Shown here piece after piece: positions 798-33,554 of a DNA stretch of 64,000 bases. Made by a program: the position numbers and the translations under genes. Below the pieces are notes generated by a model. That model was not told where the DNA came from. It did no database searches and was given only the letters and a program-made list of their open reading frames with translations. Position 1 is the first letter of the stretch; every line of letters begins with the position of its first letter. The DNA lies in the NCBI RefSeq assembly GCF_044324785.1, contig NZ_CP172127.1. The stretch is one strand, 5' to 3'. This DNA is from Escherichia coli. GTDB taxonomy: Bacteria > Pseudomonadota > Gammaproteobacteria > Enterobacterales > Enterobacteriaceae.

Positions 798-1397
798 ATG
801 AAGACTTACAACACCAATCCCGGTTACGAAATGGATCCCCAGCTCCTGACACACTTTAACCAGCATCTGGATTCATTATTCGGGGTATATTCGAAACTGT
901 TACCGTTCAGAATGGATTTTGCTTACCGAAAAAACACCCTCAGCTACAGATGTGCCTGCAGGTACGCCATGTGCGCGGAGATACTGCGACTGATTAACGA
1001 AGTGGGAGAGAAACTGGTCGGGTATGCCTGGGTAATGGAATATACGGAACGTAAAGGGCTTCACATTCATTTTGTGGGCTATCTGAACGGTCAGAGCCAC
1101 AGGAGTTCGTATCTGGTATCCAGATTGATGGGAGATATCTGGAGGCGGGTTACCGGGGGGGATGGTTACTACCACTGGTGCCGGTTTAATAAAAATTATC
1201 CGGTAAACATTAACCACGTCATTCACTATTCAGATCACAAAGCGGTGAATGCCTTACGCTATGCCATCAGCTACCTGGCCAAACGAGAACAGAAAGAATG
1301 TGGCATCATCCTGAAATGCAGCGGGCTTCCTGAAAAAAGTAATCGGGGTCGACCGCGACTGGGCAGCCCCCTGCCGGAGACTTATTCTCTGGTGTAA
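798..1397 (+). CDS. YagK/YfjJ-family protein (inovirus Gp2-like), cryptic-prophage backbone gene
   Basis: 199-aa ORF; family resemblance including an H-x-H motif (GLHIHFVGY) and C-terminal RYAISYLAKREQ segment; paralog of ORF at 29921. Confidence 0.65.
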   Translation: MKTYNTNPGYEMDPQLLTHFNQHLDSLFGVYSKLLPFRMDFAYRKNTLSYRCACRYAMCAEILRLINEVGEKLVGYAWVMEYTERKGLHIHFVGYLNGQSHRSSYLVSRLMGDIWRRVTGGDGYYHWCRFNKNYPVNINHVIHYSDHKAVNALRYAISYLAKREQKECGIILKCSGLPEKSNRGRPRLGSPLPETYSLV

Positions 1398-1762
1398 GAC
1401 CCTGAACGACAACTACGGGCTGGCGCTAATTGTTACAGTCGGTTCCGGAGGCCACTTCAGGGACTCTGCGCATTTTTTACGACATGGCTATTCCGTATGA
1501 ACCATACGGAGATTTAACCATGGCACATTCTTTACCATTCCTTCCGGCAACCGATACAGCACATCCTCCGATGTCCATCCCTGCCTGCTGACAGTTTTTT
1601 ACGCCGGAGGGCCATTGTGTGACAACCACAGTGCTGTAACAGCAACCAGCCTGCTTTACCCAAACTCCAGTCCAGATTTTAACTGAACCGCCATTCACAC
1701 CCTGACCACACTGCCCGTACCGGGACAGCTGTTGCCTGCGTGTCGTCTGGCTGCTGAGGAAT

Positions 1763-2152
1763 ATGACGATGTACGCAAAATCCTTTATTGCATTTGATGG
1801 CAACGGGCGTCTGACGGGTGCCCGTACCGCACAGACTGCACCTTACGATCGCTACACTTGCCACCTTTGCGGCAGTGCGCTCAGATACCACCCGCAATAC
1901 GACACTGAGCGTCCCTGGTTTGAACACACTGACGACGGGCTGACGGAGCACGGTCAGCAGTGCCCTTATGTCAGACCGGAACGCAGGGAGATACAACTGA
2001 TTAAGCGTCTGCAGCAATTCGTACCGGATGCCTTACCCGTGGTGCGTAAAGCCAGCCGGCACTGCAGACAATGTCATCACGATTATTATGGGGAGCGGTA
2101 CTGCACGCACAGCCATACCGGGCACTTCAGTGAGGAGGGGGTGGCAGAATGA
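1763..2152 (+). CDS. Cys-rich putative zinc-ribbon protein (CxxCG...WFEH motif), unknown function
   Basis: 129-aa ORF; CHLCGS...PWFEH plus C-terminal CRQCHH..C..H cluster; stop overlaps start of the next paralogous ORF (ATGA at 2149-2152). Confidence 0.45.
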   Translation: MTMYAKSFIAFDGNGRLTGARTAQTAPYDRYTCHLCGSALRYHPQYDTERPWFEHTDDGLTEHGQQCPYVRPERREIQLIKRLQQFVPDALPVVRKASRHCRQCHHDYYGERYCTHSHTGHFSEEGVAE

Positions 2153-2574
2153 ACGGTATAAAAACGGGGCTGGGGATCACGCCGGGTGAACACATTATCA
2201 GTGCTGATTCTGCGCTCAGCAGAAATATCCGGCAGTGTTTCTGCCTTTCCTGTCATGGCCGGTTGATTTTGCAGACAGATGCTCAGGGGGCGTGGTTTGA
2301 GCACGATTTACATGTCCTGAGCGAGCAACAGAAGGCAGCCTGCGTGGTGCTGAATCCGGAAAAGTCCCACCCTTACATTGAGGATATGGAGATGTTTTTA
2401 TCGCCATTACCGGTCGTGCTGGAGTGGCATTGTGTGATGTGTGAGCAGTTTTTTCATGGGAAGAAATTCTGTGAGGCCTGTGGTACGGGGATTTATTGCA
2501 GAGCGGTATGTACGAAGTCTGTTTACAGCTACCAGCCAGACTTGTTTCAGGACTGCGGAGGTGCGAGTACTTAA
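2149..2574 (+). CDS. Cys-rich putative zinc-ribbon protein, paralog of the upstream ORF
   Basis: 141-aa ORF; CLSCHG...AWFEH motif and C-terminal CVMCEQ..CEACG..C cluster; 4-bp overlap with upstream gene suggests translational coupling. Confidence 0.45.
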   Translation: MNGIKTGLGITPGEHIISADSALSRNIRQCFCLSCHGRLILQTDAQGAWFEHDLHVLSEQQKAACVVLNPEKSHPYIEDMEMFLSPLPVVLEWHCVMCEQFFHGKKFCEACGTGIYCRAVCTKSVYSYQPDLFQDCGGAST

Positions 2575-2724
2575 TCCGAAATGCCCGACCTGCTCAGGGC
2601 GTTCAGAAGTATCGGAACCTGCATTTTATCTGGTGTTTCGCACCCACCCCGTTCGTGACACAAAGGCGCGACACCGGATATCCGCAGTCCTGCTTACCTG
2701 AATAAAACCCGGGGTATTGATTGT

Positions 2725-2781
2725 GTACTGTGGTGCGAAATCGCACCGTGATCGCGGATTCGCCGAATCCGCACTGTGGTG
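2725..2781. repeat. Two adjacent perfect hairpins flanked by a 9-bp direct repeat (ACTGTGGTG)
   Basis: GGTGCGAAATCGCACC (2732-2747) and GCGGATTCGCCGAATCCGC (2754-2772); ACTGTGGTG at 2727-2735 and 2773-2781. Confidence 0.5.
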
Positions 2782-3045
2782 TCAACCAACCATACGCGAG
2801 AGTCCTCTCCGTATTTATCAGTGCCTCAGGACGATTTCTGCATAGTTAATCCAGGGGGCTGCATTGTTTATTTCCCTGCTAATGGACGTGACATCCAGGA
2901 TATTCATGATCCTGATTTCCCTGAGCAGTATCAGCGCTTATTGGAGCGTCTGGATTATCAGACGATGCCCGGTACTAAAGCATCAGGCCAGCGTAACTCT
3001 GGCTACAGCGGTTTTTGACCTGTTGTAACTGTAAGGTGATTTATT

Positions 3046-3612
3046 ATGTATACAGAATCAAATGTTAAGCTTTCCTGTAACGCCCTCTGGCAAAAGTGTG
3101 TCCTTGCAACTCTGTATCGGGCTGCAGCCACACATCCTGAAATTAAATTATTACAATTTAAATTAATACCAGGGCAGGGTATTAATAAGGCCATTCCCTC
3201 TCTGATGGCTGATTTTACTGGTGAACTGCATAGACTCATTTCTGAATATTTGCAGTGTAAGCGACGTAAAGAGCAATCTGTTGAGCCCACCCCTTTATAT
3301 TATCTCTGGAGTAGGGAAGCTGTGGCTAACGATACCACTCCTTATCTTATGGTGCTGCTACTTAATAACGATGTCTGGTGTAAGAGTCGTGAGGTGGTGG
3401 TTCTCAGAAATCTGATTGAGCAGGCGTGGGGAAAAGTATTGGGTGAAGATAACTCCATTACACATCTGGTTGTGTATCCTGAAGTGCTGTCGTTGGTATT
3501 TGATGCAGCTAACACATACAACGCTGAGCCTGCTGTACTGGAACAGACGGCCCGGGCTTACATTGAATCACATGGTACCATTGAACGTCATCTTGGGTGT
3601 AGTGACTTTTAA
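3046..3612 (+). CDS. Gp2/YagK-like family paralog with degenerate H-x-H region
   Basis: 188-aa ORF; PYLMVLLLNNDVWCKS aligns with HYHVILLLNKDTWCSP of the ORF at 25669. Confidence 0.45.
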   Translation: MYTESNVKLSCNALWQKCVLATLYRAAATHPEIKLLQFKLIPGQGINKAIPSLMADFTGELHRLISEYLQCKRRKEQSVEPTPLYYLWSREAVANDTTPYLMVLLLNNDVWCKSREVVVLRNLIEQAWGKVLGEDNSITHLVVYPEVLSLVFDAANTYNAEPAVLEQTARAYIESHGTIERHLGCSDF

Positions 3613-3724
3613 CGTCAGGTGATGCATAAGGGCCTTTCGCTGAGAGGCCCTGTTTACACAATTAAATAAATCGAGCCCGACCAACAATTTTGATGTTAAC
3701 AGCAGGATTATTGAGGGGCAATCA

Positions 3725-3830
3725 ATGTGTTCTTCGGTAGCGATTACGGTAGTGAACGGACCTGCTGTCTGAATGGCATCGATCCGCAAGCGTATCGGCG
3801 CCATATTCTGAGCGTACTACTGAAATGGCT
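3725..3830 (+). pseudogene. IS66-family transposase C-terminal remnant
   Basis: Translation FFGSDYGSER..CCLNGIDPQAYRRHILSVLLKW matches the C-terminus of the IS66 transposase at 57024-57383 (FFGSDHGGERGALLYGLIGTCRLNGIDPEAYLRHILSVLPEW) with a frame disruption; approximate bounds. Confidence 0.5.
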
Positions 3831-3957
3831 AATGGCAGTAAAGAGAGACTTTACGTATATTTGCATAAAGCAGGATTTTACGACTAGTCAACATTCTTTA
3901 TAATTCTTCAGGTTCAGAGTATCTGACATATAGGGTTATGTATTGGGGAGACATTTA

Positions 3958-4659
3958 ATGTTTGGCCATCTGTTACGATACTTTAGTTTCTGTAAAAAAG
4001 ATTTATTAGTATTTCATCCTGAATCTGATTACTCAGATAATTTACATAAAGCCTTCTCTTTTACAAAAAGGCTAGGATTTAATGAAGAATGGAATGGGGT
4101 CACAAAAAACAAAGAATATGATTATCAGGATGTATTCAGTCATGTCTGTCTGCAGTCTGGTGTGACAGACTTTTCCGCTTCAGCAGGACAATGCTTAAAG
4201 TGGAGTCATTATTTTCAGCCATATTTTGAGAATATCCTTGAATGTCGGGTATGGGTTACCGTTGGACAACTCTGGAAACAGGAACGATTTATTTACAATC
4301 CGTCAGTTGCGGATTTTCAGCGCTGGTCTGAAAAAGGGATTCAGCCTGAAGATTTTAGACATCACTCGGGGTTTAACTTTCATGCGTGGTTGACGACGGA
4401 AAATGGTGTGATTGTGGATGTTTCCTTTATGAGTACGTTATCGCGGCGATTACCTGAACACCTGAGTGAAGTCAGTGGAAGTGTGATTATTGGCACGCCA
4501 GAGACGGTTCTTCCTGAGTATAAATATGTTCCCATGATTGTCGGTCAGAGGATTGTTGAGAAAATAGAAAAACGCTCTTTCATTGGTTTTCTGGCGCACG
4601 ACGATATTGATTTATATACAGTACCTGCAATCTTGGTTCCGGTATGGAAAGAATGTTAA
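3958..4659 (+). CDS. Hypothetical protein, no recognisable family; orphan cargo gene
   Basis: ORF 3943-4659; likely ATG at 3958 preceded by GGGGAG; AT-rich upstream region; flanked by IS66 and IS21 remnants. Confidence 0.5.
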   Translation: MFGHLLRYFSFCKKDLLVFHPESDYSDNLHKAFSFTKRLGFNEEWNGVTKNKEYDYQDVFSHVCLQSGVTDFSASAGQCLKWSHYFQPYFENILECRVWVTVGQLWKQERFIYNPSVADFQRWSEKGIQPEDFRHHSGFNFHAWLTTENGVIVDVSFMSTLSRRLPEHLSEVSGSVIIGTPETVLPEYKYVPMIVGQRIVEKIEKRSFIGFLAHDDIDLYTVPAILVPVWKEC

Positions 4660-4978
4660 AGCACGGAATAACACTATGCACTTACCGCTTTCCGGAACTC
4701 AGCTTGTTACCTGAGCGGTCAACAGAGCAGTCTTTCAGTGTCTGCACTTGGTTGCCACTAAACCGGAGTCATTTATCAGAAGTATATGTTCATGGAAGGA
4801 TATTGTCAGCGCCAGTGATATAAGACGGTAATGAGGATAGCCACCCCGCATGGGTTTCCTCAACACTGGTCACTGTGACAAGCGCACCATGATCGTCTTT
4901 GTATCGCTGATTGACTTTCGATAATAGAACATCTTCTGACATAAATTTTAGTACGGTAACAATTAACTAAATTTTCAT

Positions 4979-5245
4979 GTGGTAGCACTGAATCAGGAGA
5001 CTGCGTTTCCTGATGTGTGCTTCTGCAGCCGTTACCGGATACAGACTTCGATACCAGTTACTTCGACATCCGCCATGTGTCCTGGGACCCGCTATAACGA
5101 AGTTGGAGGTAATCAGTACAGCGTTCCCGAAATGCTGTGTGGTCAGCCAGTCTCGATACGAATATCGCTGAACGATGAGTTGCGGATCTACAGTAATGAG
5201 AAACTGGTGGCCTCACATCGCCTCTGCTCAGTGTCGTCTGGCTAG
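4979..5245 (+). pseudogene. Possible IS21-family IstA C-terminal fragment
   Basis: Segment YSVPEMLCGQPVSIRISLNDELRIYSNEKLVASHRL resembles IstA C-terminal region; weak, by eye. Confidence 0.3.
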
Positions 5246-10868: not shown

Positions 10869-12131
10869 CTATTTTAATGGATTGTTAATCTTTGCATATT
10901 CAAACGGGCTGATACATTGTTCTCTGTTCGCACCCAGAAAATCTGCCCACCACTGTAGCATCAGTCGACGTTCTTCCAGATGTTCTGCTTTATGGATATA
11001 TGCAGCACGTACACCATTACGCTCCTGATGGCTCATCTGACGTTCCACAGCATCGCGGGACCACAAACCTGATTCAATCAATGCACTGCACGCCATCGCC
11101 CGGAATCCATGACCACAGACTTCCTGGGTTGTGTCATATCCCATCACCCTCAGGGCTTTATTTACAGTATTTTCACTGATCGGTTTACGCGGGTCATGTG
11201 CTCCCGTAAAGATCAGACCATTTTCACCAGCCCATGTCTGTAGTTCTGTCAGTATGGCTACAGCCTGTTTGCTGAGTGGCACAAGATGTGGTGTTCGCAT
11301 CTTGGAGCCCCGGTGTGAGTATTTTACGCCTGGCAGAGGTTCGCGTTCGGCTGGAATAGTCCACATGGCATTGTCAATATCAATTTCAGACCAGCGGGAA
11401 TATCTGAGTTCACTGGAACGAATAAAAACCAGTAAATTCAGCATAACTGCCAGTCGGGTGACAGGCTGACCTTTATAACCGTCAATACGCGACAGAAGTT
11501 CAGGCAGGCGTGAAAGATCCAGAGCAGGGCGATGCTGGCGTTTTACCGTGGTCAATGCACCAGCCATATCCAGAGCCGGGTTATATCTGATGATGCCAGA
11601 CTGTACGGCATAACGCATTACAGCAGATATTCTTTGCTGCAGACGACTGGCGATTTCATAAATTTGTTTTGCTTCTGCAGCACGAACAGGGATAAGCAGG
11701 TCCGGGGTATTGAGTGTTGTGATATCCCGGTTGCCGATAAAGGGGAAAACGTGTGTCTCGAGGCTTTTGATTACTTTATCGCTGTGTGATTGTGCCCATT
11801 GTTTATTACTGGCATGCCAGCGTCGTGCAATATGTTCAAAAGAGAGTTGTAAATCAGGGACTACTTTTTTAGCTCTTTTTTGTTCGCAAGGGTCAATCCC
11901 CTCTGAAATCAGTTTTCGGGCCTCATCCCGTTTTGTACGAGCTTCGGAGAGAGAAACTTCTGGATATACACCAAGTGCCAGAGTCTTCTCCTTACCCAGA
12001 ATACGATAACGGAGACGCCAGTAACGGGAACCATTAGGATGAACCAGCAGGAACATGCCAGCCCCGTCAGTGAGTTTATAAGCCTTGTCAGTGTGCTTTG
12101 CAGCCCGGATTTTTGCGTCAGTCAGTGCCAT
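10869..12131 (-). CDS. P4-type tyrosine integrase (CP4-like island integrase)
   Basis: 420-aa ORF; N-terminal LTDAKIRAAK..GMFLLVHPNGSRYWRLRYR arm-binding domain and C-terminal catalytic region (HGFRAM...RAAY). Confidence 0.9.
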   Translation of the reverse strand: MALTDAKIRAAKHTDKAYKLTDGAGMFLLVHPNGSRYWRLRYRILGKEKTLALGVYPEVSLSEARTKRDEARKLISEGIDPCEQKRAKKVVPDLQLSFEHIARRWHASNKQWAQSHSDKVIKSLETHVFPFIGNRDITTLNTPDLLIPVRAAEAKQIYEIASRLQQRISAVMRYAVQSGIIRYNPALDMAGALTTVKRQHRPALDLSRLPELLSRIDGYKGQPVTRLAVMLNLLVFIRSSELRYSRWSEIDIDNAMWTIPAEREPLPGVKYSHRGSKMRTPHLVPLSKQAVAILTELQTWAGENGLIFTGAHDPRKPISENTVNKALRVMGYDTTQEVCGHGFRAMACSALIESGLWSRDAVERQMSHQERNGVRAAYIHKAEHLEERRLMLQWWADFLGANREQCISPFEYAKINNPLK

Positions 12132-12328: not shown

Positions 12329-12347
12329 TGGTGCCCGGACTCGGAAT
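12329..12347 (-). repeat. Copy of tRNA-Phe 3' end (att core) without tRNA body
   Basis: Minus-strand ATTCCGAGTCCGGGCACCA equals the last 19 nt of E. coli tRNA-Phe; upstream sequence does not match the tRNA body. Confidence 0.65.
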
Positions 12348-12594
12348 GAAACTGGTTGTATAACAAGTTGTTTTATATTGATTGTTTTGTGTTTGTTATT
12401 TTTGAGGCCACCAATGAGGCCCCCATGTGCAATTCGAATTCTTTTGACGCTATAATCCCTCTTTCTTGTGGTTTGTTGTAATCATTTTGTCTGGTTCGAT
12501 ATGCTGAATCGCGGAATCGAAGTGACAACAAAATACAGAGATTTATAAAATACCTGGCTACCTGTGTTAGGGAGCGTTAACGCACAGATTTTGT

Positions 12595-21034: not shown

Positions 21035-21997
21035 ATGACGGCACAACAAAGTGATGCGCTGCGTGAGATTGCTAATAAGGCCAGAGTTACCACCATTCTT
21101 CAGTGTAAGGCCTGGAAAGATACCCAGCGAATACTGAAGCGCAGCGGACTCGTGTGCAGAGAACGGTCAGAGCCGTTTGATCCGGAGAAACATTTTGACT
21201 GTTATACGGTGCGTTATCTGTACCTGCTTAACATAATGGCACTTGAGCTAAAGTCAGATACACGGATTAAGGTTGAGGTGGGGCAATGGTATCGCATGAC
21301 GGGTAAACGTTTATCACTTAATGTCCCGCCTTTTATGCTGATCCCGCGTAATATCCGGAGAAAAGTGGACGGATTCAGACAATCCAGACAATCAGAAGAT
21401 GAAGCAACCAAAAATCCGCCTCAACCGTTCACGGGCAGTTTGTATAAGGTTTTGAGCAGGGACAGCGATTCGGCTGAGCTGGACGCCTGGTTTGCTGAAC
21501 CGCCGCTGACACGGCAGGAAGTGTGGGAGGGGAGGCGTGTTACAGATTTTGATCCATGGGCGCTGTCTTCGTTTATTTGCCGTTCAGAATCCCCGACGTT
21601 TGAACTTTTTTACCAGGAATATAAGCGACTGGGATTAAAATCTCTTTTTGTATCAGGGGTAATGTTTGAACAGTTTTTAACAGGGCTAAGTTTCAGAAAA
21701 TATGGGGACTGGGTTGAATCTCAGTTACTGGAATCACTGGGAAATGTGATGTTTTTCATGCTGCTTTATGACATGGAAAATCTGGATAAGTTTATAAAAG
21801 AACTGATGGACATTAATGTTCAAAGTGAAGATTCGAAGGAAAAAGGGAAATCACGAAAAGAGAGAATGCTGGAGTATATCAACTCATATATCCGCAATGT
21901 TTATGGAAGATTCCTTTGTACGTCAAAAGAAAGGTACGAACAGCATAAACGCAAAAACAGCAGCAAAAAGAAAAACGGTTCTGGTGGAACTCATTAA
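21035..21997 (+). CDS. Hypothetical protein, no recognisable family; basic Lys/Ser-rich C-terminal tail
   Basis: 320-aa ORF; ATG at 21035 preceded by GGGAGG; stop overlaps stop of convergent ORF. Confidence 0.5.
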   Translation: MTAQQSDALREIANKARVTTILQCKAWKDTQRILKRSGLVCRERSEPFDPEKHFDCYTVRYLYLLNIMALELKSDTRIKVEVGQWYRMTGKRLSLNVPPFMLIPRNIRRKVDGFRQSRQSEDEATKNPPQPFTGSLYKVLSRDSDSAELDAWFAEPPLTRQEVWEGRRVTDFDPWALSSFICRSESPTFELFYQEYKRLGLKSLFVSGVMFEQFLTGLSFRKYGDWVESQLLESLGNVMFFMLLYDMENLDKFIKELMDINVQSEDSKEKGKSRKERMLEYINSYIRNVYGRFLCTSKERYEQHKRKNSSKKKNGSGGTH

Positions 21998-22863
21998 CGG
22001 GAATAATCCCCTGCTGTTTTCTGCATAAACAGACGATCAGCTGATAAGATGAGTTTATCCAGCATTTCAGCCTGCGTCAGATTATTCTTTTTTGCCATTT
22101 TCCGGAGTGCATTCCTGGCTTCCGGAGAAATCAGGGCACTTATCTGTACCCGGGAATCGGTTTTCTCATACCGGAACATTTTCTGGTATGAGCACTTCAT
22201 GCGCCTGAGAAAATCATTCTGCTGATAAACTAATTCTTTTAACTTTTGAGGTTCAGTACCGACAGAATAGATTTTCATGAAGACACGGCGCACATAAGCT
22301 ATTATGAACAGACGTGACTCCCCTGAAGCTTTAAATTCTGAAATATCAGGACAGTGACGTTCTTCGTCAGTGCAATGTTTTTGCAGATACGCCCATGCCC
22401 ATTTGATATGTATCCGCCGGGAACCAAGCCATGTCATGGGGTTCACTTTTTCAGCATATGACCATAAAAAATGAACGACATACAAGAAGTCAGATACATT
22501 TTCTGTCCCGGTTAGCCTTATAAGCTCCTGTAGCCATTTTCTCGTCACACGAATCCTTGCCTGATGATTAGCTGGAGCTGCTTCTGTGGCAAACAGTCTG
22601 GCATACAGACAGGAAGTTCCGTAATCTGCATATTGCTCACCTGAGAGTCGGACAATACTGTCAGGAACATGATATATAAACATCCATACCCAGAATGCGG
22701 CTACAGGGTCTTTTTGCACCCACTCCGGAACAACGTCTCTGCCTGCATTATCAGCATTAACAGAAGGTGATTTATCGTTATGTCGGTAATATTCATATTC
22801 CATCCGACTAAAAACATGATCAGATTCATCTGGTGAATGCACAGACATGAACTCCCTGGGCAT
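21994..22863 (-). CDS. Hypothetical protein with C-terminal RHH-like segment
   Basis: 289-aa ORF; C-terminal SPEARNALRKMAKKNNLTQAEMLDKLI; alternative start at Met6 (22848) preceded by AGGGAG. Confidence 0.5.
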   Translation of the reverse strand: MPREFMSVHSPDESDHVFSRMEYEYYRHNDKSPSVNADNAGRDVVPEWVQKDPVAAFWVWMFIYHVPDSIVRLSGEQYADYGTSCLYARLFATEAAPANHQARIRVTRKWLQELIRLTGTENVSDFLYVVHFLWSYAEKVNPMTWLGSRRIHIKWAWAYLQKHCTDEERHCPDISEFKASGESRLFIIAYVRRVFMKIYSVGTEPQKLKELVYQQNDFLRRMKCSYQKMFRYEKTDSRVQISALISPEARNALRKMAKKNNLTQAEMLDKLILSADRLFMQKTAGDYSR

Positions 22864-23954: not shown

Positions 23955-24468
23955 AGTTTAGTAAATCTTTACGTTAACTAAATCAGTTTAATGCTGCTGT
24001 AAAACCTTTCTGTTTAAGCAATCAATCTGCTATTCGATTTTACTGATGTTACGTTTAACCTTTCCTTAGATTTCGAGTTTCGACGTTAGCTTGAGAAAAG
24101 TATCTTTACGTAAAGCCCAGTGAATTAACTCAAATCCGATTGAGGTAACCTGATGCGATTTACTGTGAGTTTGCGATAACACTGTTAAATGGCTTATGGA
24201 TGATTTTGTAACGGCGAGATTGATAAGGTGATTAACTGGCCCTGGTGTTTTTTCTCAGCGTAAGGTGATTATCTTCATCATAAGGCTCTTTTCAGAAAAA
24301 GTGTGATGATTGGTTGTGGTGTTTTGATTCAGATGAGGATCTGCCAATGATTATGATGTATTGTAAGAAATAACGCCTTCAGAATGTTGGAGCATGCACT
24401 TACACAAACTGTTTTTCTAAAATTAAGGGAACAGTTTAAAGAGTATAAACTGTTCATCTTCTTCAGGA

Positions 24469-24999
24469 TTAAGCTACATTGTTGTTATGACTGACAGGAT
24501 TGTTTTCTTCCCCTGACTCTGGGCTTAACAGTCCCTGGCGTTGTAGATATTCACTGACTGACATTCCAGAACTACGGATCCTGTCAGAGATTTTACGAAA
24601 TTGATCCTTCCATTCTGCAGGTAATTTCTTAATTTGTCTGACTTTACAGGCTACACTGTACGGGGTTCGCCCTAGTTTCTCTGCCAGCCAGAAAAGGTGT
24701 TTACCAATTTCATCGTCCGGTACATCCTCCAGAACATCTCGCAATAAACTCTCGTCTGCCTCATTCCATGCCACACCAGCATTTGGGAAACGAGGATCGA
24801 TCTCTCTTTCCTTCTTCTCCTTCTTACTTTGCTCTTTTCGGGATGATACAGATACGACAGAACGTTCTTTTACCGCTGTAATTGCCATAACTGCATTGAG
24901 CAGAGATCTGCGCTCCACATCGTTCAGCATTTTTCCTTCACAGATCAAATCATTCAGGATGTCAATGACTAGATTCAGACTTTCTTCTGTTAGCTTCAT
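24469..24999 (-). CDS. Hypothetical protein, possible DNA-binding (helix-rich, acidic and basic patches)
   Basis: 176-aa ORF; ATG at 24999 with AAGG upstream; 10-bp perfect inverted repeat just 3' of the gene. Confidence 0.5.
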   Translation of the reverse strand: MKLTEESLNLVIDILNDLICEGKMLNDVERRSLLNAVMAITAVKERSVVSVSSRKEQSKKEKKEREIDPRFPNAGVAWNEADESLLRDVLEDVPDDEIGKHLFWLAEKLGRTPYSVACKVRQIKKLPAEWKDQFRKISDRIRSSGMSVSEYLQRQGLLSPESGEENNPVSHNNNVA

Positions 25000-25668
25000 A
25001 TTTCAGACCTTGAAGTATGTAGATAATCAGCACAATTACTAATGTGATAAATATCAGAAGATAATTTACAGGTAAACCGGAAAATACATCTGAAGAATAA
25101 AGGCCTCAGCTTAACGTTTCAGCCAGTTTGTGAGCTGATTGAGGTACGGCGATGACATTAACGGGAATTACTCCCCTATAGCTCTGAGCTTATTTTTCAC
25201 CCTGGCAACATATGGTGGCTACTGCGCATGGTTTTGGAGTAGATATCTTACTACTCGTAGAATTGTGCTTACTGGTCAGGCCAGCGCACAGGCATTCCGT
25301 GCAATCAATAGAACACTGGTTTTTTAGTCTTCCGTTACCCATCAGGATGTTAGTGCAGATTCCGGTGTATTCGATCAGTTGTTCGGCGAATCAGCGATCG
25401 ATCACGATGCGATTTCGTATGTTAGGGATGCTGGTATGATTACTCGCTGAAAAATAATGTGAAAAGGCAGTTTTTCTTTAGACATTTAGCTCATTCATGC
25501 TGTTGTTTTACGTTTTGCTGTCGTGTGCAGGATTATCTTTTCGTTACGGGACGATTCATTCCGTTTTAATCAGGAGCTATTGGCGTTGCTCATTGGTGGG
25601 ATGCCGTAAAGTTTTACCGCGGCGATTAATGATGTGAAGTCAATCCAAATCAACGGAGATCTCTCATC

Positions 25669-26400
25669 ATGAATCAACCAATACACAATGATTACTGGTT
25701 ATCCCGTTTTGAAAGTATTCTCAACAGTGCCCTGGTGCAACACCGTGCCGTCTCGTTAATCCGGGTGGATTTACGTTTCCCTGAGCATATGCCTGTCACC
25801 ATCATGGATCCCGATCCGGATTCAGCGGTGATTTCTCGTTTTTTCGAATCCCTGAAAGCCAAAATTCAGGCTTACCAGCGGAAAAAACGACGTACCAACA
25901 AGCGTGTGCGTGCAACCACCCTGCATTATTTCTGGTGTCGGGAGTTTGGCAAGGAAAAAGGCAGGAAACATTATCACGTGATATTACTGCTCAACAAAGA
26001 TACCTGGTGCTCGCCAGGGGATTTCACCGTTCCTTCTTCGCTGGCGACGCTGATCCAACTGGCATGGTGTAGCGCTCTGCATCTTGAGCCCTGGCAGGGT
26101 AATGGACTGGTTCATTTTTCCAGGCGGACGCCTTTCCGTAAACCGGCATCATCTGATGCTCGCCCTTCTTCCGATGATACGCCTTTGTCGGGTGGATGTT
26201 CTGAAACCAGGAAGGCTTCAGACAAAAAGCCGGGTGAAGCCGCTGTTCTCTGGATCAAGCGTGGTGATGTGGAAGCGATGCAGAAAGCCATGGAGAGAGC
26301 CCGTTATCTCGTGAAGTATGAGACGAAGCAGCATGACGGTTCTGGTCAACGTAATTATGGTTGCAGCCGTGGAGCGGGGCGTCTACTGGATGGCAGGTGA
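25669..26400 (+). CDS. Gp2/YagK-like family paralog (HYHV motif)
   Basis: 243-aa ORF; RKHYHVILLLNKDTWCSPGD; ACGGAGAT upstream of ATG. Confidence 0.5.
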   Translation: MNQPIHNDYWLSRFESILNSALVQHRAVSLIRVDLRFPEHMPVTIMDPDPDSAVISRFFESLKAKIQAYQRKKRRTNKRVRATTLHYFWCREFGKEKGRKHYHVILLLNKDTWCSPGDFTVPSSLATLIQLAWCSALHLEPWQGNGLVHFSRRTPFRKPASSDARPSSDDTPLSGGCSETRKASDKKPGEAAVLWIKRGDVEAMQKAMERARYLVKYETKQHDGSGQRNYGCSRGAGRLLDGR

Positions 26401-26726
26401 ACCCTGTAAAAAGGCATCCGGTGCCAGAGTATATGTCACAGTAAGGGCGTGGTTGACGCCCTTAGCTCGTTTTCTGAAAAAGTCGTCCTGAAGTCATGCA
26501 ATGTTTCCTGGTTTTCATGCATCCATCATTTGTCGCTGCGATGCCAGACTTCTGGATGCACACATGTTGTTTTACTTTTGTCAGCATCATAAATGCGCCG
26601 GGACTGGTGAATGGAGATAAGCCATTTTATTATCGACGTCAGCGAACATACTCACCATGCCGGTATGTTCCTGAACTGAACAATAAGTTTTGCGCTGATT
26701 ACAGTATGTGAAGGAGGTCCGTTACA

Positions 26727-28331
26727 ATGAATTCCGCTTATATGCAATCCTTGCAGACATCCCACCACTTCCCAGCTGATTTAACCTACAGATTATTTCC
26801 TAGTGAGCTTGCATATCTCATTGACGACTTATATGAAAGTACCCAACTTCCGCTGGAGCTCATTTTTAATACTGTACTGGCAACGCTCTCACTCTCCTGT
26901 CAGTCACTGGTTGACGTTGTTCATCCTCACACCAACATGCCGGAACCCTGCTCACTTTATCTGTTGGCAATCGCAGAGCCAGGCGCGGGAAAAACAACGA
27001 TAAACAGACTGGTGATGAACCCCTGTTACGAATTTGCCGATCGACTCATTCAACAATACGAAGAGAGAAACAAAGATTATAAGACTGAACTACAGATCTG
27101 GAATACCCGGCAGAAAGCGCTTGCTGCCAATTTAAGAAAGGCTGTTAACCGGGGGTATCCGGGGGAACAGGAAGAAGAGGCGCTGCGTAATCACGAAAGA
27201 AATAAACCGACACGTCCGGTTCGACCGAATTTTATCTATGAAGATGTTTCGCTTAAAGCGCTTGTGGAAGGGCTCAATGAACATCCTGAGGCAGGGGTTA
27301 TTTCTGACGAGGCGGTCACTTTTTTCAGAAGCTATCTGAAAAATTATCCGGGCCTGTTGAATAAAGCATGGAGTGGACAACCGTTTGATTTTGGACGGGC
27401 TGACGAGAAATACCATATCACGCCACGTCTGACATTTTCGTTAATGTCCCAGCCGGATGTCTTTACGAATTATATAAATAAAAATGACGTACTGGCGTGG
27501 GGAAGCGGATTTCTTTCCCGGTTTCTGTTCAGTCAGACCGGAAGTCCTTCCCGGGTACGGGATTATACGAGAGGCGAGTTCAGAACAAAACCAACCCTGG
27601 AGAAGTTTCATAAAAAGATTAACGGATTTCTGTTAAGCCATAACATTAATTCCCCCGGTATGAGCACCGAAAGGAAAACATTAAAACTTGCAAAGAAAGC
27701 GTTGGGGGAGTGGCAGGAAAACCAGATTAAGATTGAAAGAAAAGCGCTTGCAGGAGGGGAGTGGGAACACATCAGAGATATTGTTCTGAAAGCAGGTTCT
27801 AATATACTGAGGATAGCTGGAATATTCACCTGCTATTGCTATAAAGATGCTGAGGAAATTGAATCAATTGCGCTTTTTAAAGCTATGCATCTCATGGACT
27901 GGTATCTGGAGGAGGCGAGCACAATATTTTATCCCATGTCTGCACGATGCCAGTTTGAACAGGATGCCTGTGAACTGTATGCATGGATTATGACCCGAAT
28001 AAGGCAGAATAATTGGCGTGCTATCAGGAAAACAGACATTGAAAGATATGGTCCCAATCGTCTGAGAAGAGCAGAAAAACTTACACCTGTACTCAATCAG
28101 TTAATCGCTCAAAATTATTTCCGTATCATCAAGATGCGATCGCATCAGGCACTTTATGTTTCTGCTCTTGATAATAATGGTTACATCCTTCCTTTCGGCG
28201 CAATGTCTTACGAACCGTTTGATATTGTTCCACCCCAGTATAACCATAATGCGAAAACATATTCCGTTGTTATTCCACCGGCATTAATTCAGTCATTTAC
28301 ACCTGATTCCTCAGCTTACACCTTATTTTAA
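26727..28331 (+). CDS. YfjI-like P-loop protein (DUF3987-like), putative NTPase
   Basis: 534-aa ORF; Walker A AEPGAGKTT; strong SD GAAGGAGG. Confidence 0.6.
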   Translation: MNSAYMQSLQTSHHFPADLTYRLFPSELAYLIDDLYESTQLPLELIFNTVLATLSLSCQSLVDVVHPHTNMPEPCSLYLLAIAEPGAGKTTINRLVMNPCYEFADRLIQQYEERNKDYKTELQIWNTRQKALAANLRKAVNRGYPGEQEEEALRNHERNKPTRPVRPNFIYEDVSLKALVEGLNEHPEAGVISDEAVTFFRSYLKNYPGLLNKAWSGQPFDFGRADEKYHITPRLTFSLMSQPDVFTNYINKNDVLAWGSGFLSRFLFSQTGSPSRVRDYTRGEFRTKPTLEKFHKKINGFLLSHNINSPGMSTERKTLKLAKKALGEWQENQIKIERKALAGGEWEHIRDIVLKAGSNILRIAGIFTCYCYKDAEEIESIALFKAMHLMDWYLEEASTIFYPMSARCQFEQDACELYAWIMTRIRQNNWRAIRKTDIERYGPNRLRRAEKLTPVLNQLIAQNYFRIIKMRSHQALYVSALDNNGYILPFGAMSYEPFDIVPPQYNHNAKTYSVVIPPALIQSFTPDSSAYTLF

Positions 28332-28930
28332 AACAATTTTGTGAGTAGAAAACGAAAATCATAATCCTTCGAATGAAGGTTGATGATAAGGTGTGTTGCA
28401 TATCCTGCACCTGTGCAAATATTCACCAATTATTGGGTGTGAATGAAAATTTCTCTGAAAAAATCGCTATGGTAGCAACAGTAGCAGCACATACACTACA
28501 TCTGTGATTTGGTTTTGTTTTCATAATGACCTGCTGTCAGAGCTGATTGAATGCTGGGATGTGCGCACTGGTGGAAGAGTGGTTTTCGTTTCAGATATAA
28601 CGAAAGGCAATCGAAAGATTGTTTTAAACATGGATTAAAGCTAATCATTAACCATATTGTGTGAGTTTTTATATATAAGTTTGTTTGATTCTTGCCGTGA
28701 TGAGTGCTGGGGTATATGACGATGTCGCTCTCTTTCTGAATAACAAATTATTATTCGTCTGTTACTGATAAGGGATGCGATTCATGTTTTAATAGATGGT
28801 TGAAGAAAATTAATTTGATATTTTTTTTGTAAGGGAATGGAACTGTCCGGAATATGTTCAGAACGGCGGATTTCTCATTTCCATTCATTAAACATGGATA
28901 ATTTTAATTTAGGTTTATTACTATTATTAT

Positions 28931-29047
28931 ACTCACTCCCTTTTTGATATAATCTCTATTGTTATTTACTTCCTGTCTTTACTCACTCCCTTTTTCATAC
29001 AATCTCTATTGTTATTTACTTCCTGTCTTTACTCACTCTCTATCTTT
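28931..29047. repeat. Tandem 50-bp direct repeat: two copies plus a partial third
   Basis: 28931-28980 and 28981-29030 differ at 2 positions; partial third copy ACTCACTCTCTATCTTT. Confidence 0.7.
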
Positions 29048-29920
29048 ACGATTATATTCACTCTATCGTTACACATTCCATTAGTATTACTCTTGTTATC
29101 GTATTCATTCCATCCCTCAATCATATTTACTGTAACTCATATGATGTTCAGGTAAGTTATTCTCTACCATTCTACTGATGATATTCATCTGTTCTCATTT
29201 TCACTGAAACAGCAATTAATTTTAATCTTATCCATCATGAGCTGTATTTTCTTAACAATGGTTGTTTATCTGAAGTGTTTTAACTATTCTGATGAACATC
29301 AATTCTTTTGTCATTACTGATTAACCGAATGTTTACTTTTTGATAAGGTATCCATGATTCTGTAACGATTAACAGAGCTGGATAAACAATGGAATTGACA
29401 GGAGAGATTCCTGATTATGTTTGTTCTGGGTTGTATTATCTAAGATGCAGGATGAAAATCATGTCAGTGGTATTTTTTATTCTGCTATCGTGAGCCGTGA
29501 ATGTTCATGTCCTTAAGAACAGATTGAATGAGCGCATATAAGTTTATTGCATTGGCCTTGTACACAGTTTTTACAACCACTGAGAGCAAGTTTGTAGTTT
29601 ATGATGTGATTGGTCGCAATATGTTTCTTAACCTTCTGGACGTGGTGTTTTATCGCGTATTTACAGTATTTCGTGATGTTTTATTGAGTCTGTATTTTCT
29701 TTACTCCTCGTTTATCTCATCTCTTTAGCTAATACCATCAGATAATCCATTTCTTTCTGCATAATGCTGCGTATCGTTAATAACCCGTCGTATCCATTCT
29801 GCTACAGCATGCCTGATAAATACCATCTGTAAGTTATTACCGTTTTAGATCTGATTATGAGCGAAAGCATTAATTCGTTCACAGAGCTTAAAACATCATT
29901 AACTTTCAGGAGTCATCAAC

Positions 29921-30487
29921 ATGCCTAAATCTTACACACCAAACTGGTTTTTTACCGCTTTACTTGACAATCACATCAATCAAATGATGGCACGCTATTC
30001 CTGCCTGCGGGCCTTACGGATGGATTTCTTCTACAGGAAAGATACGCCTGATTTCTTACAACCTGATCATCGCTGGCTTGAATTGCAGTTGCGTATGCTG
30101 CTGGAGCAGGTGGAACAATTTGAAAATATCGTTGGTTTCTTCTGGGTGATTGAATGGACGGCTGATCATGGTTTTCATGCGCATGTGGTTTTCTGGATCG
30201 ATCGTCAGAGGGTTAAAAAAATATATCCCTTTGCGGAGCGGATAGCGGAATGCTGGCGGTCTATTACGCATAACAGCGGTTCGGCACACCGCTGTACATA
30301 TCAGCCGCATTATACATACAACATCAACATTCCTGTGCGCCACAACGATCCTGAAAGCATCGATAATATTCGCGGTGCCCTGCATTATCTGGCAAAAGAA
30401 GAGCAAAAAGACGGGCTGTGTGCCTACGGCTGCAATGAAGTTCCTGAACGTCCTGCTGCAGGGCGTCCTCGTAAGCCTCACTTCTGA
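29921..30487 (+). CDS. YagK/YfjJ-family protein (inovirus Gp2-like)
   Basis: 188-aa ORF; HGFHAHVVFWIDRQ H-x-H motif; paralog of ORF at 798. Confidence 0.65.
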   Translation: MPKSYTPNWFFTALLDNHINQMMARYSCLRALRMDFFYRKDTPDFLQPDHRWLELQLRMLLEQVEQFENIVGFFWVIEWTADHGFHAHVVFWIDRQRVKKIYPFAERIAECWRSITHNSGSAHRCTYQPHYTYNINIPVRHNDPESIDNIRGALHYLAKEEQKDGLCAYGCNEVPERPAAGRPRKPHF

Positions 30488-30744
30488 AGCTTAAATCCTG
30501 AGCTTCCTGTCCTGGAAACACTCCGTCGGTAAAAACTTACCGCCTTGCTTAATGATGTGAACTGAAGTCAACGGAGATCATTCACTCTGAACCACATCCG
30601 GTGTTCTGTCCCTTGTCGGTGACCTGATCTTCCCGTTCTGCCCCGGTTCTTCACTTATTCCATCAACCCCATCCGCAAACCATAACACGTCAGCTTATTC
30701 ACGGGCAGGACGCATTGTGGGCTGCGCATAACGGAGCATATCTT

Positions 30745-31305
30745 ATGAATGCTATCCCTTATTTCGACTATAGCCTGGCCCCCTTCTGGCCATCTTATCA
30801 GAACAAAGTCATCGGCGTCCTTGAGCGTGCGCTGCGTGAGCAGTCCGGCTCACGGATACGGCGGATCCTGCTTCGTCTGCCGTGTGAATATGACAATACC
30901 TTCAACAGCAGAACGACCTGGTTTGGTATGGATTTTATCGAAACCGTCAGTGCGCTGATGAATGCAACACCCGGACGTGACCTTTGCTGGCTCCTGACCC
31001 GTCATCCTGAAAAACCGGAATACCATGTGGTGCTGTGCGTCAGACAGGAGTATTTCGACGGCCCCGAACTGGATCGGTTGATTCTGGATGCCTGGAGTAA
31101 CGTGCTGGGTTTCGCGTCACCAGGTGAAGCAAAGCCGTACCAGAAGCAGATCACCCGGGATGTGGTACTGGATCGCCGGTCACCGGACTGCGAAGCCCTG
31201 TTTAAGGACCTTATCTGGGCGTTCAGTGATTTCGCCCGCGATCGCCGTGGAGTGCGCGATCCGGAAGCCCGTTGCCTCGCCGGTAATCCCGGTTGGCAGT
31301 GCTGA
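30745..31305 (+). CDS. Gp2/YagK-like family paralog
   Basis: Track ORF 30715-31305; PEYHVVLCVRQEYFDGPEL aligns to the H-x-H region of the 25669 paralog; start Met uncertain. Confidence 0.45.
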   Translation: MNAIPYFDYSLAPFWPSYQNKVIGVLERALREQSGSRIRRILLRLPCEYDNTFNSRTTWFGMDFIETVSALMNATPGRDLCWLLTRHPEKPEYHVVLCVRQEYFDGPELDRLILDAWSNVLGFASPGEAKPYQKQITRDVVLDRRSPDCEALFKDLIWAFSDFARDRRGVRDPEARCLAGNPGWQC

Positions 31306-31373
31306 AAGCAGCATTCCATCCCATACCTCGTATTACCCCATTCTTCATCAATCTCACAGAGGATATTCTGACC

Positions 31374-31607
31374 ATGTTGACCACAATAAGCCACGACAGC
31401 GTGTTGCTGCGTGCCGACGATCCCCTGATCGACATGAACTACATCACCAGTTTCACCGGCATGACCGATAAATGGTTTTACAGGCTGATCAGTGAAGGTC
31501 ATTTCCCTAAACCCATCAAACTGGGGCGCAGCAGCCGCTGGTACAAAAGTGAAGTGGAGCAGTGGATGCAGCAGCGAATTGAGGAATCACGAGGAGCAGC
31601 AGCATGA
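31374..31607 (+). CDS. alpA: AlpA-family transcriptional regulator / excisionase-like HTH protein
   Basis: Internal start of track ORF 31293-31607; MTDKWFYRLISEGHFPKPIKLGRSSRWYKSEVEQWMQQR matches the AlpA pattern. Confidence 0.7.
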   Translation: MLTTISHDSVLLRADDPLIDMNYITSFTGMTDKWFYRLISEGHFPKPIKLGRSSRWYKSEVEQWMQQRIEESRGAAA

Positions 31608-31696
31608 AACGTGTTGTAATGCCAGTACGCTGGCAATGTGCGAAATGCCGGCGCTGGTATTGTGGAAATCAGCCCTGTCCCTGGTGCTGGCGCTGA
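31604..31696 (+). CDS. Unannotated 30-aa Cys-rich putative zinc-ribbon peptide
   Basis: MKRVVMPVRWQCAKCRRWYCGNQPCPWCWR; ATG overlaps the alpA stop (ATGA); below the 60-aa ORF-track cutoff. Confidence 0.35.
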   Translation: MKRVVMPVRWQCAKCRRWYCGNQPCPWCWR

Positions 31697-31836
31697 CAAC
31701 TCCCGCTCATCTTTCTGCTGGCACCCTCTGGCCAGCCAACTGTTTGTCATCATTTCCTGACTGATTCGTCATTCCCTTCGTCCCGCCAGTCACTGGTGTT
31801 TGTATCGTACCGTGCCGGTGTCGATGTGCGCTTTCC

Positions 31837-32433
31837 GTGTGTCTGGTCTGCACCGGCTTAACAAAATTCAACGGGGATAAAATAGTGCAAATAACCGAAG
31901 CCTTACTTTCAGCGCCGGGGGAAATCCGGCGTTTTGTTCAGCAGGCGGTGGACCACTGGCCAAATCTGTTGGCATTTCACTTCACGCTCCATTCGGCAGA
32001 AGGAAACATCAACGGACAACAGATTCATGCATTCTGTACTTCCTTTTACCGACAGGTGCACGAGCGTATTACTGAACGTAATCACACGGCCAGTCCAGCA
32101 CCACCGGTGGTATTACGCTGGTTGCGGGAACAACATGGAGGAGCAACAATGCGATGCCTGTTGCTGCTCAGCCAGACGAGCATTTGCCATCCACGGGTCA
32201 GTGCCACGGTTGATGAAGAATGTTCGCAACGGGTGGATTTATTGCAACAGACATGGCGGGTGATAAGTGCTGACGGACAATGCCGGGTGGAAAGGTGTTT
32301 TCAGGCTGCCCGGGGTGATACATCCGGCCAGTATATTGCGTTAAAAACAGTTGCATTGTCTCTGGGGTTACCGGTTGTGACCGGTATTACCCATCGCCCG
32401 GTACAGCGCTGTACATTGATTACAGCTCAGTGA
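31837..32433 (+). CDS. Hypothetical protein, possibly a further divergent Gp2/YagK-like paralog
   Basis: 198-aa ORF; LLAFHFTLHS and MRCLLLLSQ segments loosely align with other paralogs; start may be GTG at 31885. Confidence 0.35.
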   Translation: MCLVCTGLTKFNGDKIVQITEALLSAPGEIRRFVQQAVDHWPNLLAFHFTLHSAEGNINGQQIHAFCTSFYRQVHERITERNHTASPAPPVVLRWLREQHGGATMRCLLLLSQTSICHPRVSATVDEECSQRVDLLQQTWRVISADGQCRVERCFQAARGDTSGQYIALKTVALSLGLPVVTGITHRPVQRCTLITAQ

Positions 32434-32450
32434 ACAGCGCTGTTGTGCAG

Positions 32451-32753
32451 TCAACGAGGTTTTCTGTCTTTTCGTCGGTCATTCAGCATCATTAAACGGG
32501 TCTCTGCCTCTTTCTGTTCCTGTGGTGTCACTTCCCCGCACGGCTGACCGTTCAGGTTGTAACGGGCGCCACCTGCTATTAACGCACGGTAATAGCGCGG
32601 AGACTGCACATAAGACGCCACTGCTGCATGTAATGTACCAGCGCCAAACGCCAGTTCTCGGATGGCGATATCCTGTATCAGGTCGTCAGGTATCCCCACT
32701 TTAAGTGGTTTTGTTTTTTTCCCGGTTGAATGACTCAGGCCAGAGTTCCACAA
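32451..32753 (-). CDS. Hypothetical protein
   Basis: 100-aa ORF; no family recognised; may be one frame-disrupted gene with 32768-32962. Confidence 0.3.
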   Translation of the reverse strand: MWNSGLSHSTGKKTKPLKVGIPDDLIQDIAIRELAFGAGTLHAAVASYVQSPRYYRALIAGGARYNLNGQPCGEVTPQEQKEAETRLMMLNDRRKDRKPR

Positions 32754-32767
32754 GACGAATAATGCGC

Positions 32768-32962
32768 TTACGGTTTTTGCTCTGGCGTTTTGTCATGTCG
32801 CCACGGTGTTTTATCAGCAGGTTTCTGTTTATCGTTCAACTGTGGTATCTGGTCACCGGCCTTCATTTTGTATGCTGTGTCCGTTTTATTCTGCAGCGGC
32901 GTTGCCGGTGATTTACTGAAAATACCCTGCGGTTTACGGTTAATGGTCAGAGTTACCATCAA
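32768..32962 (-). CDS. Hypothetical small protein
   Basis: 64-aa ORF directly upstream of 32451-32753 on the same strand. Confidence 0.25.
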   Translation of the reverse strand: MMVTLTINRKPQGIFSKSPATPLQNKTDTAYKMKAGDQIPQLNDKQKPADKTPWRHDKTPEQKP

Positions 32963-33554
32963 TTTTGTTACCTCGCGCTGTCAATGGAAGTAGTACCTCA
33001 TCCGATATCTGAAAATGTTTTCCGGTGGATGTTACAGCGAATTTCATGTAAGACATGTTGTTGTCGGTATTGTTCAGTACTGTGCGTTGTGAGCGTATTC
33101 GTTATCAGACAGAGGGGCAGGGAACAAACGTCAGAGGTTAAGGATATCCGGGAACAAATGGCGTAAACGGACATCTCAGTGCCTGAGAAACAGTACAGGT
33201 CAGGCCATCATGGCCTGCAAACAGAGCCCTGGCGACCCCGTGGCCGAAAACGAAACAATAACCCGCGCGCAGTGCGAGGAATCCGGATGTGAAGCAATCA
33301 GCAGGTAATATTAATGGCAGGACCAGCAGGTTCTTTAAACAAACGAACATGCTGTAATTGATATTTTGCTTATTGTATTTTCTTTTTAGTTATTAAATTA
33401 ATTTATTTACGAAAAATTTTCTGCAGATACAGGATGGGAATTCAGGGTGTCATCACGCCTTATGATGACACCCTTCCCCTGGTTGTGGAAAACCGAAGGA
33501 TATATCAGGTTCAGCAACAAAATCAGTGAGCTGAAAGATACCAGTCCCCCAGCT

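Follow-up and report, generated by a model that had tools for sequence, protein, structure and literature searches.

YagK/YfjJ-type proteins with Rep-like HUH motifs in the backbone of Escherichia coli genomic islands

The closest described relatives of the genes considered here are yfjJ and yagK of Escherichia coli K-12, which are present as one copy per island in CP4-57 and CP4-6 respectively. We have analyzed a stretch of 64,000 nucleotides of an E. coli genome (contig NZ_CP172127.1, termed the window below) that carries six genes of the YagK/YfjJ type, here called A to F in order along the plus strand (Table 1). A preliminary description of this DNA had listed these six open reading frames (ORFs), F only as a possible member, and quoted a motif for each of A to E, and all are present on that strand. 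The existence of the family and its resemblance to replication initiators (Reps) are already known from the names in use at Pfam and NCBI. C has 30% identity with YfjJ (expectation value E=1.5e-26) and 32% with YagK, and shares with them the H-Y-H and Y-x-x-K motifs and a context of YfjI, AlpA and an integrase. B and a gene fragment immediately before it belong with YfjJ and YagK to what we shall call the long type. The window differs from K-12 in having several copies, in the presence of a short subtype (A and D) and of copies without an intact HUH motif (B, E and F), and in a 38-amino acid insert within C.

Three further systems invite comparison. The first comprises the HUH Reps of single-stranded DNA (ssDNA) phages and viruses (PF23343, microvirus VP4/Rep, parvovirus NS1/Rep). 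Unlike these, the window proteins have no fused helicase and are not phage-borne. The second is the inovirus gene II protein; the Pfam name REP_ORF2-G2P places it, like the window proteins, in the broad HUH Rep superfamily. We have rejected the idea that the window copies are inovirus gene II proper. C matched no inovirus genome in a tblastn search (E≤1e-3) of 50,697 phage records; its single hit was an unannotated 4.5-kb record named as an 'Escherichia phage'. There is no filamentous-phage gene set near the window copies, whose neighbors are island backbone genes. The window proteins are about 200 amino acids in length, and inovirus gene II proteins about 400. Plasmids carry the family in 64 of 72,556 cases, mostly large ones. 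On this distribution the YagK/YfjJ type is an island family, for which 'inovirus Gp2' is a historical and misleading label.

The third system is NicK of ICEBs1, an HUH-type nickase of an integrase-bearing element that acts on the excised circle with a separate helicase. Here the comparison is one of functional analogy only. Unlike integrative mobilizable and conjugative elements, the module in the window includes no origin of transfer (oriT), coupling protein or type IV secretion system genes.

Homology, subtypes and catalytic motifs

Among the six proteins BLASTP finds two significant pairs, A with D (32% identity, E=1e-32) and B with C (32%, E=8e-11), and no others. In a Pfam scan PF11726 (YagK_YfjJ_C) is matched by A (4.3e-4), B (9.1e-10) and D, with C the best match (5.9e-36, attributed by elimination). 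PF23343 (REP_ORF2-G2P) is matched by A (9.9e-5), C and D. With the library used E has no Pfam match at an E-value of 0.1, and F none even at 10. PF27752 (UCP030791) was not in that library, and the assignment of F to it rests on the precomputed matches of its homologs; it is carried by all 120 F homologs listed (74-100% identical, from 331 hits in total). NCBIfam gave nothing meaningful for any of the six proteins.

Names in existing annotation are uneven. A is called a YagK/YfjJ domain-containing protein in strain TUM9803, and homologs of D are called 'inovirus-type Gp2 protein', 'YagK/YfjJ domain-containing protein' or 'rolling circle replication-associated protein'. E is a hypothetical protein everywhere. 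The NCBI Prokaryotic Genome Annotation Pipeline (PGAP) names F variously 'hypothetical', 'UCP030791 family' or 'YagK/YfjJ domain-containing'; the PGAP/RefSeq homologs of F begin at the GTG at 31885, giving 182 amino acids.

Families were collected around the individual copies and compared as profiles. The C family has 583 cluster representatives at E≤1e-3 in a full HMMER scan, the D family 121 hits across Enterobacterales, and the E family 63 hits, essentially all from E. coli, with no relevant Pfam domain among them. Against the C family, hhalign aligned the D family with 97.1% probability (E=6.6e-11, 179 columns), the E family with 96.5% (E=7.9e-10, 163 columns) and the F family with 91.6% (E=8e-7, 111 columns). 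Reversed and column-shuffled controls reached a probability of at most 0.8%, with a best E-value of 0.066. When the hidden Markov model (HMM) of the C family was run over 1029 six-frame segments of the window, the six highest scores were those of C, B, A, D, F and E, with B at 1.6e-18.

Because the Pfam and BLASTP matches, the controlled hhalign comparisons and the six-frame ranking all agree, we conclude that the six ORFs are homologous. With pairwise protein identities of 15-31% they are evidently anciently diverged paralogs. A and D form the short subtype, while C and B belong to the long subtype with K-12 YfjJ and YagK; E and F are best placed as divergent offshoots of the long subtype. 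The preliminary description had proposed a single family of two subtypes, and this agrees with the Pfam matches for A to D and the hhalign results for E and F; none of the copies proved to be unrelated.

Motif frequencies for the long type were counted in C plus 113 full-length cluster representatives, taken as the best scoring, so that this sample leans toward C-like sequences. Both histidines of H101-Y-H103 are present in 114/114, and W89, E92 and W133 are also invariant. Y213 occurs in 111/113, K216 in 111/114 and K220 in at least 90%. In the short type, as represented by the D family, His86 and His88 are each found in 76/81, Tyr156 in 71/80 and Lys159 in 79/81. The H-x-H pair is therefore conserved across the family, as had been supposed, and it is also correct that some of the window copies are degenerate. 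The HUH motif, a metal-binding pair of histidines with a bulky hydrophobic residue between them, is present in A (HIH, within the string LHIHF), C (HYH, KHYHV) and D (HAH, FHAHV). It is half present in E (EYH, EYHVV), and absent from B (PYL, TPYLMV) and from F (T-M-R, with TMRCLL at the same position). Motif III (YxxK) reads YLAK in A and D and YLVK in C; B has the tyrosine without the lysine.

The altered residues are themselves conserved. In the E family the E-Y-H and a phenylalanine (Phe163) aligned with the catalytic tyrosine are both invariant or nearly so, and in the F family T-I/M-R-C is invariant. F retains WLRE and a second tryptophan, together with a conserved Y-V/I-A-L-K that has no confident hhalign alignment to motif III. 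Compared with diverged E. coli alleles, the ratio of nonsynonymous to synonymous substitution rates (dN/dS) is 0.13-0.19 for E, 0.18-0.25 for D, 0.26-0.27 for F and 0.33 for C; for B compared with strain ABW_A19 it is 0.34. These ratios indicate that the copies are under purifying selection, and that the loss of motifs in the B, E and F lineages is old and stable. From the motifs it is reasonable to infer that the intact and degenerate copies differ in activity. The link of the E family and UCP030791 to YagK/YfjJ as HUH-dead derivatives may be new; we found no source that connects E to the family, and some F homologs already bear the family name (PGAP, nr). Five E homologs (P0021, P0034, P0056, P0061 and P0063) look frameshifted, which suggests decay of the E gene in some genomes, yet dN/dS is still low in intact alleles.

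The short types end in a GRPR(K) tail that resembles an AT-hook (GRPR at 1370-1385 in A, GRPRK at 30458-30475 in D). In 79 D-family members Gly181 is present in 76, and Arg182, Pro183 and Arg184 are each present in 66-67. Such a tail could bind the minor groove of AT-rich DNA, for example in the spacer upstream of D.

The short ORF upstream of B is the truncated, decaying remnant of a seventh copy. It matches only the C-terminal ~50 positions (163-213) of the C-family HMM, and a segment at 2752-3015 comes directly after the six genes in the six-frame ranking. Its translation is 40% identical to K-12 YagK over 67 amino acids (E=1.6e-9). In strain ABW_A19 an intact YagK-like gene of 204 amino acids (HYH, YLTK) lies 27 nucleotides upstream of the B-type gene. 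The remnant is 78% identical to the C-terminus of that protein over 51 amino acids (E=3.5e-25), and 91.7% identical in DNA over 180 nucleotides. It is unannotated in the identical TUM9803 sequence, and the region 2700-3612, containing the remnant and B, is matched in 1618/5426 E. coli genomes. Both the truncated copy and the recurring adjacency of an intact and a dead gene may be new observations.

Predicted fold and proposed function

The AlphaFold2 (AF2) model of C, based on the 114-sequence alignment, has a predicted local distance difference test score (pLDDT) of 84.5 and a predicted template modeling score of 0.80, and the insert at residues 154-191 is its only low-confidence part. The model has an alpha/beta fold with a central antiparallel sheet, as in Reps, and resembles the HUH nucleases parvovirus NS1, adeno-associated virus (AAV) Rep, Helraiser and microvirus Rep. 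Structure comparison also returns B19 NS1, AAV5 Rep, TnpA-REP and RepB at lower Z. The scores are moderate, and the Rep-type matches are interleaved with generic ferredoxin-like domains. A Foldseek search of the BFVD viral models gave 109 hits at E≤1e-3; most are nameless, and those that are named are all microvirus replication initiators or VP4 replication proteins. C is matched by PHROG families of 'replication initiation protein', and searching PDB sequences with the C-family profile gave no match even at an E-value of 10. The HUH and YxxK signature, the model and the PHROG matches thus lend moderate support to a Rep-like fold for C, and to the resemblance to Reps that had been suggested for the H-x-H copies.

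The insert in C (26128-26241) consists of 38 amino acids rich in Ser, Pro, Asp and Lys. It is predicted to be disordered, and is found in none of 113 aligned family representatives.

We lean, with modest confidence, toward the following reading. The six genes are ancient YagK/YfjJ paralogs with HUH Rep-type fold and motifs that form part of the island backbone; the intact copies would nick the excised island, and the dead copies would serve as their partners. The integrase and AlpA would drive excision of the island to give a circle. The intact proteins would bind this circle and nick one strand at a specific site, becoming linked to the DNA through a 5'-phosphotyrosine. The nick might then lead to replication of the rolling-circle type, or to relaxase-like processing for transfer. 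Unwinding would fall to YfjI, the neighboring DUF3987 protein, or to a host helicase in islands that lack it. The dead paralogs that lie beside intact ones (D with E, and the YagK-like gene with B in other strains) would be non-catalytic DNA-binding partners or regulators. Vague annotation would in this way be turned into a testable hypothesis on how islands replicate or move after excision.

The strict conservation of the histidine pair and of the tyrosine and lysine suggests that the intact proteins are enzymes and not mere DNA binders. That they might nick an excised circle is suggested by the neighboring AlpA and integrase genes, by the frequent neighbor of a helicase family, and by a study of Pseudomonas that lists inovirus Gp2-like proteins among the core genes frequent in intY-alpA islands (PMC12595487). 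Long-type genes adjoin AlpA and an integrase in other loci also, and in K-12 alpA-yfjI-yfjJ lies beside intA. The YfjI homolog in the window is 31% identical to K-12 YfjI (E=2e-59); a search of PDB sequences with it found nothing. A DUF3987 protein has been shown to be a 5'-3' helicase that works with the primase-polymerase of a mobile genetic element (PMC11724360), and YfjI is a candidate for the helicase partner.

A number of observations count against this proposal. A search for a conserved nick site or origin was unsuccessful. CP4-type islands are usually regarded as non-replicative and cryptic. Our literature search found no functional study of YagK, YfjJ, YfjI, inovirus Gp2 or PF11726; an apparent match to 'YagK' in one paper was the Rep motif string 'YAGK', and was discarded as false. 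The pairing of a C-type gene with YfjI is not universal. At three other loci (L005, L009 and L011) the neighbors are not YfjI-like and lack the Walker A motif, and in strain TUM9754 insertion sequence (IS) elements and ireA occupy the place of YfjI. Lastly, the AF2 model of E reached a pLDDT of only 38. It rested on a shallow alignment of 14 E-family sequences, with identities of 62% or more, which was not padded with C-family sequences since that would have been circular.

A more specific form of the proposal is that pairs of an active and a dead protein (D/E, YagK-like/B and C/F) together with YfjI give the supposedly cryptic CP4-type islands an autonomous step of rolling-circle replication or mobilization after AlpA-induced excision. 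The dead subunit would provide origin recognition or control, and the active subunit would act with YfjI. We regard this version as speculative and on present evidence doubtful. If it were true, the orphan E family and UCP030791 would be recognized as inactivated HUH proteins.

The alternative that survives best, although we think it unlikely, is that these are domesticated HUH-fold proteins that bind DNA and, with AlpA, control transcription or excision without cleaving DNA. On this view the degenerate copies would be regulators for which the ancestral active site has become dispensable. Such a role would suit the direct adjacency of family genes to AlpA in many loci, the purifying selection on the three of six copies that have no catalytic residues, the palindromic leader common to C and E, and the AT-hook-like tail of the short types. 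It accounts poorly for the near invariance of the histidine pair, tyrosine and lysine across the 114 long-type representatives, and in about 94% of the short type.

A role in defense or interference is less likely again. Island-encoded HUH nucleases might target the replication intermediates of invaders, whether ssDNA phages, plasmids or competing islands, or might titrate their origins. The module does border defense cargo in several genomes, among it dnd/dpt; in K-12 the genes are abpAB and rnlAB, and in Enterobacter SNF2/AAA/S8 genes. The intY-alpA islands of Pseudomonas carry defense systems (PMC12595487). Yet no PADLOC model matches the six proteins, YfjI, the zinc-ribbon proteins or a neighbor of 176 amino acids (24469-24999), and the family genes hold fixed backbone positions by AlpA and the integrase that do not vary with the cargo.

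Relationship, distribution and origin of the copies

Might E, F or both be unrelated ORFs with a chance resemblance? Neither was matched in the Pfam library used, HMM searches against the single sequences score weakly at about 15-16 bits, and the AF2 model of E is uninformative. We nevertheless consider this very unlikely. The hhalign alignments of both families (96.5% and 91.6%) span 111-163 columns and keep every motif block in register, and 22 control comparisons for E and F gave at most 0.7%. BLASTP of K-12 YfjJ against E gave E=1.4e-5 over 182 amino acids, in a database of six sequences only. Some F homologs have been named as YagK/YfjJ or inovirus Gp2 family (PGAP, nr), and in Enterobacter the position of F is held by an intact long-type gene.

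The preliminary description had considered the density of copies in the window to be unusual. The genome counts show otherwise. An 8-kb module query is covered to at least 80% in 290 complete E. coli genomes; 2999 of 5426 contain parts of it, the number of places per genome having a median of 2 and a maximum of 10. E homologs occur in 1985 of these 5426 genomes (up to 5 copies per genome) and F homologs in 2464 (up to 6 copies). The copies are fixed components of a common genomic-island backbone, and the set found here is its usual one. About half of complete E. coli genomes have islands with YagK/YfjJ-type genes in their backbone, and these islands carry virulence and anti-phage cargo. An Enterobacter island has a short-type gene, AlpA, a long-type gene and a zinc ribbon, with both family genes intact, so the multi-paralog design predates E. 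coli.

Repeated acquisition or duplication of modules had been offered as an explanation of the number of copies. Acquisition holds in the limited sense that two islands are joined at a tRNA-Phe remnant (see below). Recent duplication is excluded by the low protein identity and by the absence of DNA similarity between the regions 1-5000 and 24000-33500 of the window. A recent, strain-specific tandem expansion of one gene is scarcely credible, for while six copies lie within 32 kb and a leader of ~70 nucleotides is common to C and E, every paralog has its own widespread orthologous family and the same arrangement recurs in hundreds of genomes and another genus. The impression of a local expansion is therefore corrected.

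The islands and their other features

The coordinates of the genes and other features are collected in Table 1.

Table 1. Family genes and associated features of the window, in order of position.
Feature	Position	Strand	Length and remarks
A, short-type; 'inovirus-type Gp2' / YagK-YfjJ domain protein	798-1397	+	199 aa; H-I-H and Y-L-A-K intact
Two adjacent zinc-ribbon genes	1763-2152, 2149-2574	+	PGAP 'putative zinc ribbon protein'
Decayed 3' end of long-type (YagK-like) gene	2776-3018	+	80 aa; motif III reads RLDYQTMPGTK
B, long-type, degenerate active site	3046-3612	+	188 aa; P-Y-L for H-Y-H; motif III AYIES, without Lys
P4-type integrase	10869-12131	-	Adjoins tRNA-Phe remnant
tRNA-Phe 3'-end copy, attachment site (att) remnant	12331-12349	-	19 nt; TGGTGCCCGGACTCGGAAT, the reverse complement of the TUM9803 tRNA 3' end
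Leader upstream of C, repeated upstream of E (D-E intergenic)	25606-25676, 30529-30594	+	~70 nt, 71-74% identity
C, long-type YagK/YfjJ; 'inovirus Gp2 family protein'	25669-26400	+	243 aa; H101-Y-H103 and Y213-L-V-K216 intact
YfjI homolog, DUF3987 P-loop	26727-28331	+	534 aa; Walker A GAGKT; Pfam DUF3987 2.1e-74
AT-rich spacer (30-37% GC)	28332-29920		~1.6 kb; without long ORF
D, short-type	29921-30487	+	188 aa; H86-A-H88 and Y156-L-A-K159 intact; GRPRK tail
E, divergent long-type derivative	30745-31305	+	186 aa; E92-Y-H94; Phe163 for catalytic Tyr
AlpA-type excision regulator	31371-31607	+	78 aa; between E and F; TIGR01764 excisionase domain 3e-4
F, UCP030791 (PF27752), HUH-less long-type derivative	31837-32433	+	198 aa; T-M-R-C for H-Y-H

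The first 12000 nucleotides of the window are 100% identical to strain TUM9803, and the identity stops at 12350, next to the tRNA-Phe remnant. ARAGORN found no complete tRNA in the window. The remnant evidently marks the junction of two abutting islands. Island 1 (1 to about 12350) carries A, the two zinc-ribbon genes, the YagK-like remnant, B and IS debris. Island 2 starts with a backbone on the minus strand (CbtA/YeeU, antirestriction, DUF932 and GTPase genes) and continues with C, YfjI, the AT-rich spacer, D, E, AlpA, F and a ProQ/FinO-like gene. Its cargo follows, comprising phosphotransferase system genes, transketolase, a YadA-like adhesin and TonB receptors, and its right-hand end and integrase lie outside the window. 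Backbone genes (GTPase, DUF932, antirestriction, RadC-like and CbtA/YeeU) are annotated in a near-identical locus of strain 23CRST013. The window thus contains the integrase, tRNA-Phe remnant, AlpA and backbone genes that characterize integrase-AlpA islands like CP4-57 and CP4-6. Homologs of the AlpA protein carry PF05930 (Phage_AlpA) and are named helix-turn-helix transcriptional regulator by PGAP.

The zinc-ribbon proteins are 29-30% identical to a Zn_ribbon_11 (PF11682) protein encoded after the long-type gene of an Enterobacter locus (L013, 9529-10017), and a fusion of a zinc ribbon with UCP030791 is present in the database (P0099). Zinc-ribbon genes are recurrent neighbors of the YagK/YfjJ family.

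The leader upstream of C and its second copy upstream of E were found as repeat families D2 and D3 in a repeat search. Each contains a palindrome, CGGTAAA-GT-TTTACCG before C and CGGTAA-N4-TTACCG before E, followed by TTAATGATGTGAA and GGAG. The sequence TTAATGATGTGAASTSAA has exact matches at the two leader sites only, with 0.29 expected by chance. In the copy before E, the position of the ATG of C is occupied by CTG, and an in-frame stop follows. Both copies are conserved in other E. coli loci, and the palindrome shows no recognizable conservation across genera. An operator, a promoter or a nick site are possibilities for its role.

The interval between C and D is a hot spot for cargo (26400-29921 here, 4167-7037 in L005 and 5533-12374 in L012). 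It holds YfjI in the window, proteins of 511 and 274 amino acids in one other E. coli, and IS2, ireA, IS1 and more IS elements in TUM9754. Within the spacer there is a 50-nucleotide tandem repeat of 2.2 copies (28930-29038), and its plus strand is strongly pyrimidine-rich with a GC skew of -0.47. The equivalent spacer in strain 23CRST013 has no annotation, and Rfam matched no family over the whole window, spacer included. Finally, an ORF of 289 amino acids on the minus strand (21994-22863) is weakly similar at its C-terminus (residues 235-274) to RepA, a regulatory protein of plasmid replication (NF010256, E=7.5e-5, well below the curated cut-off).

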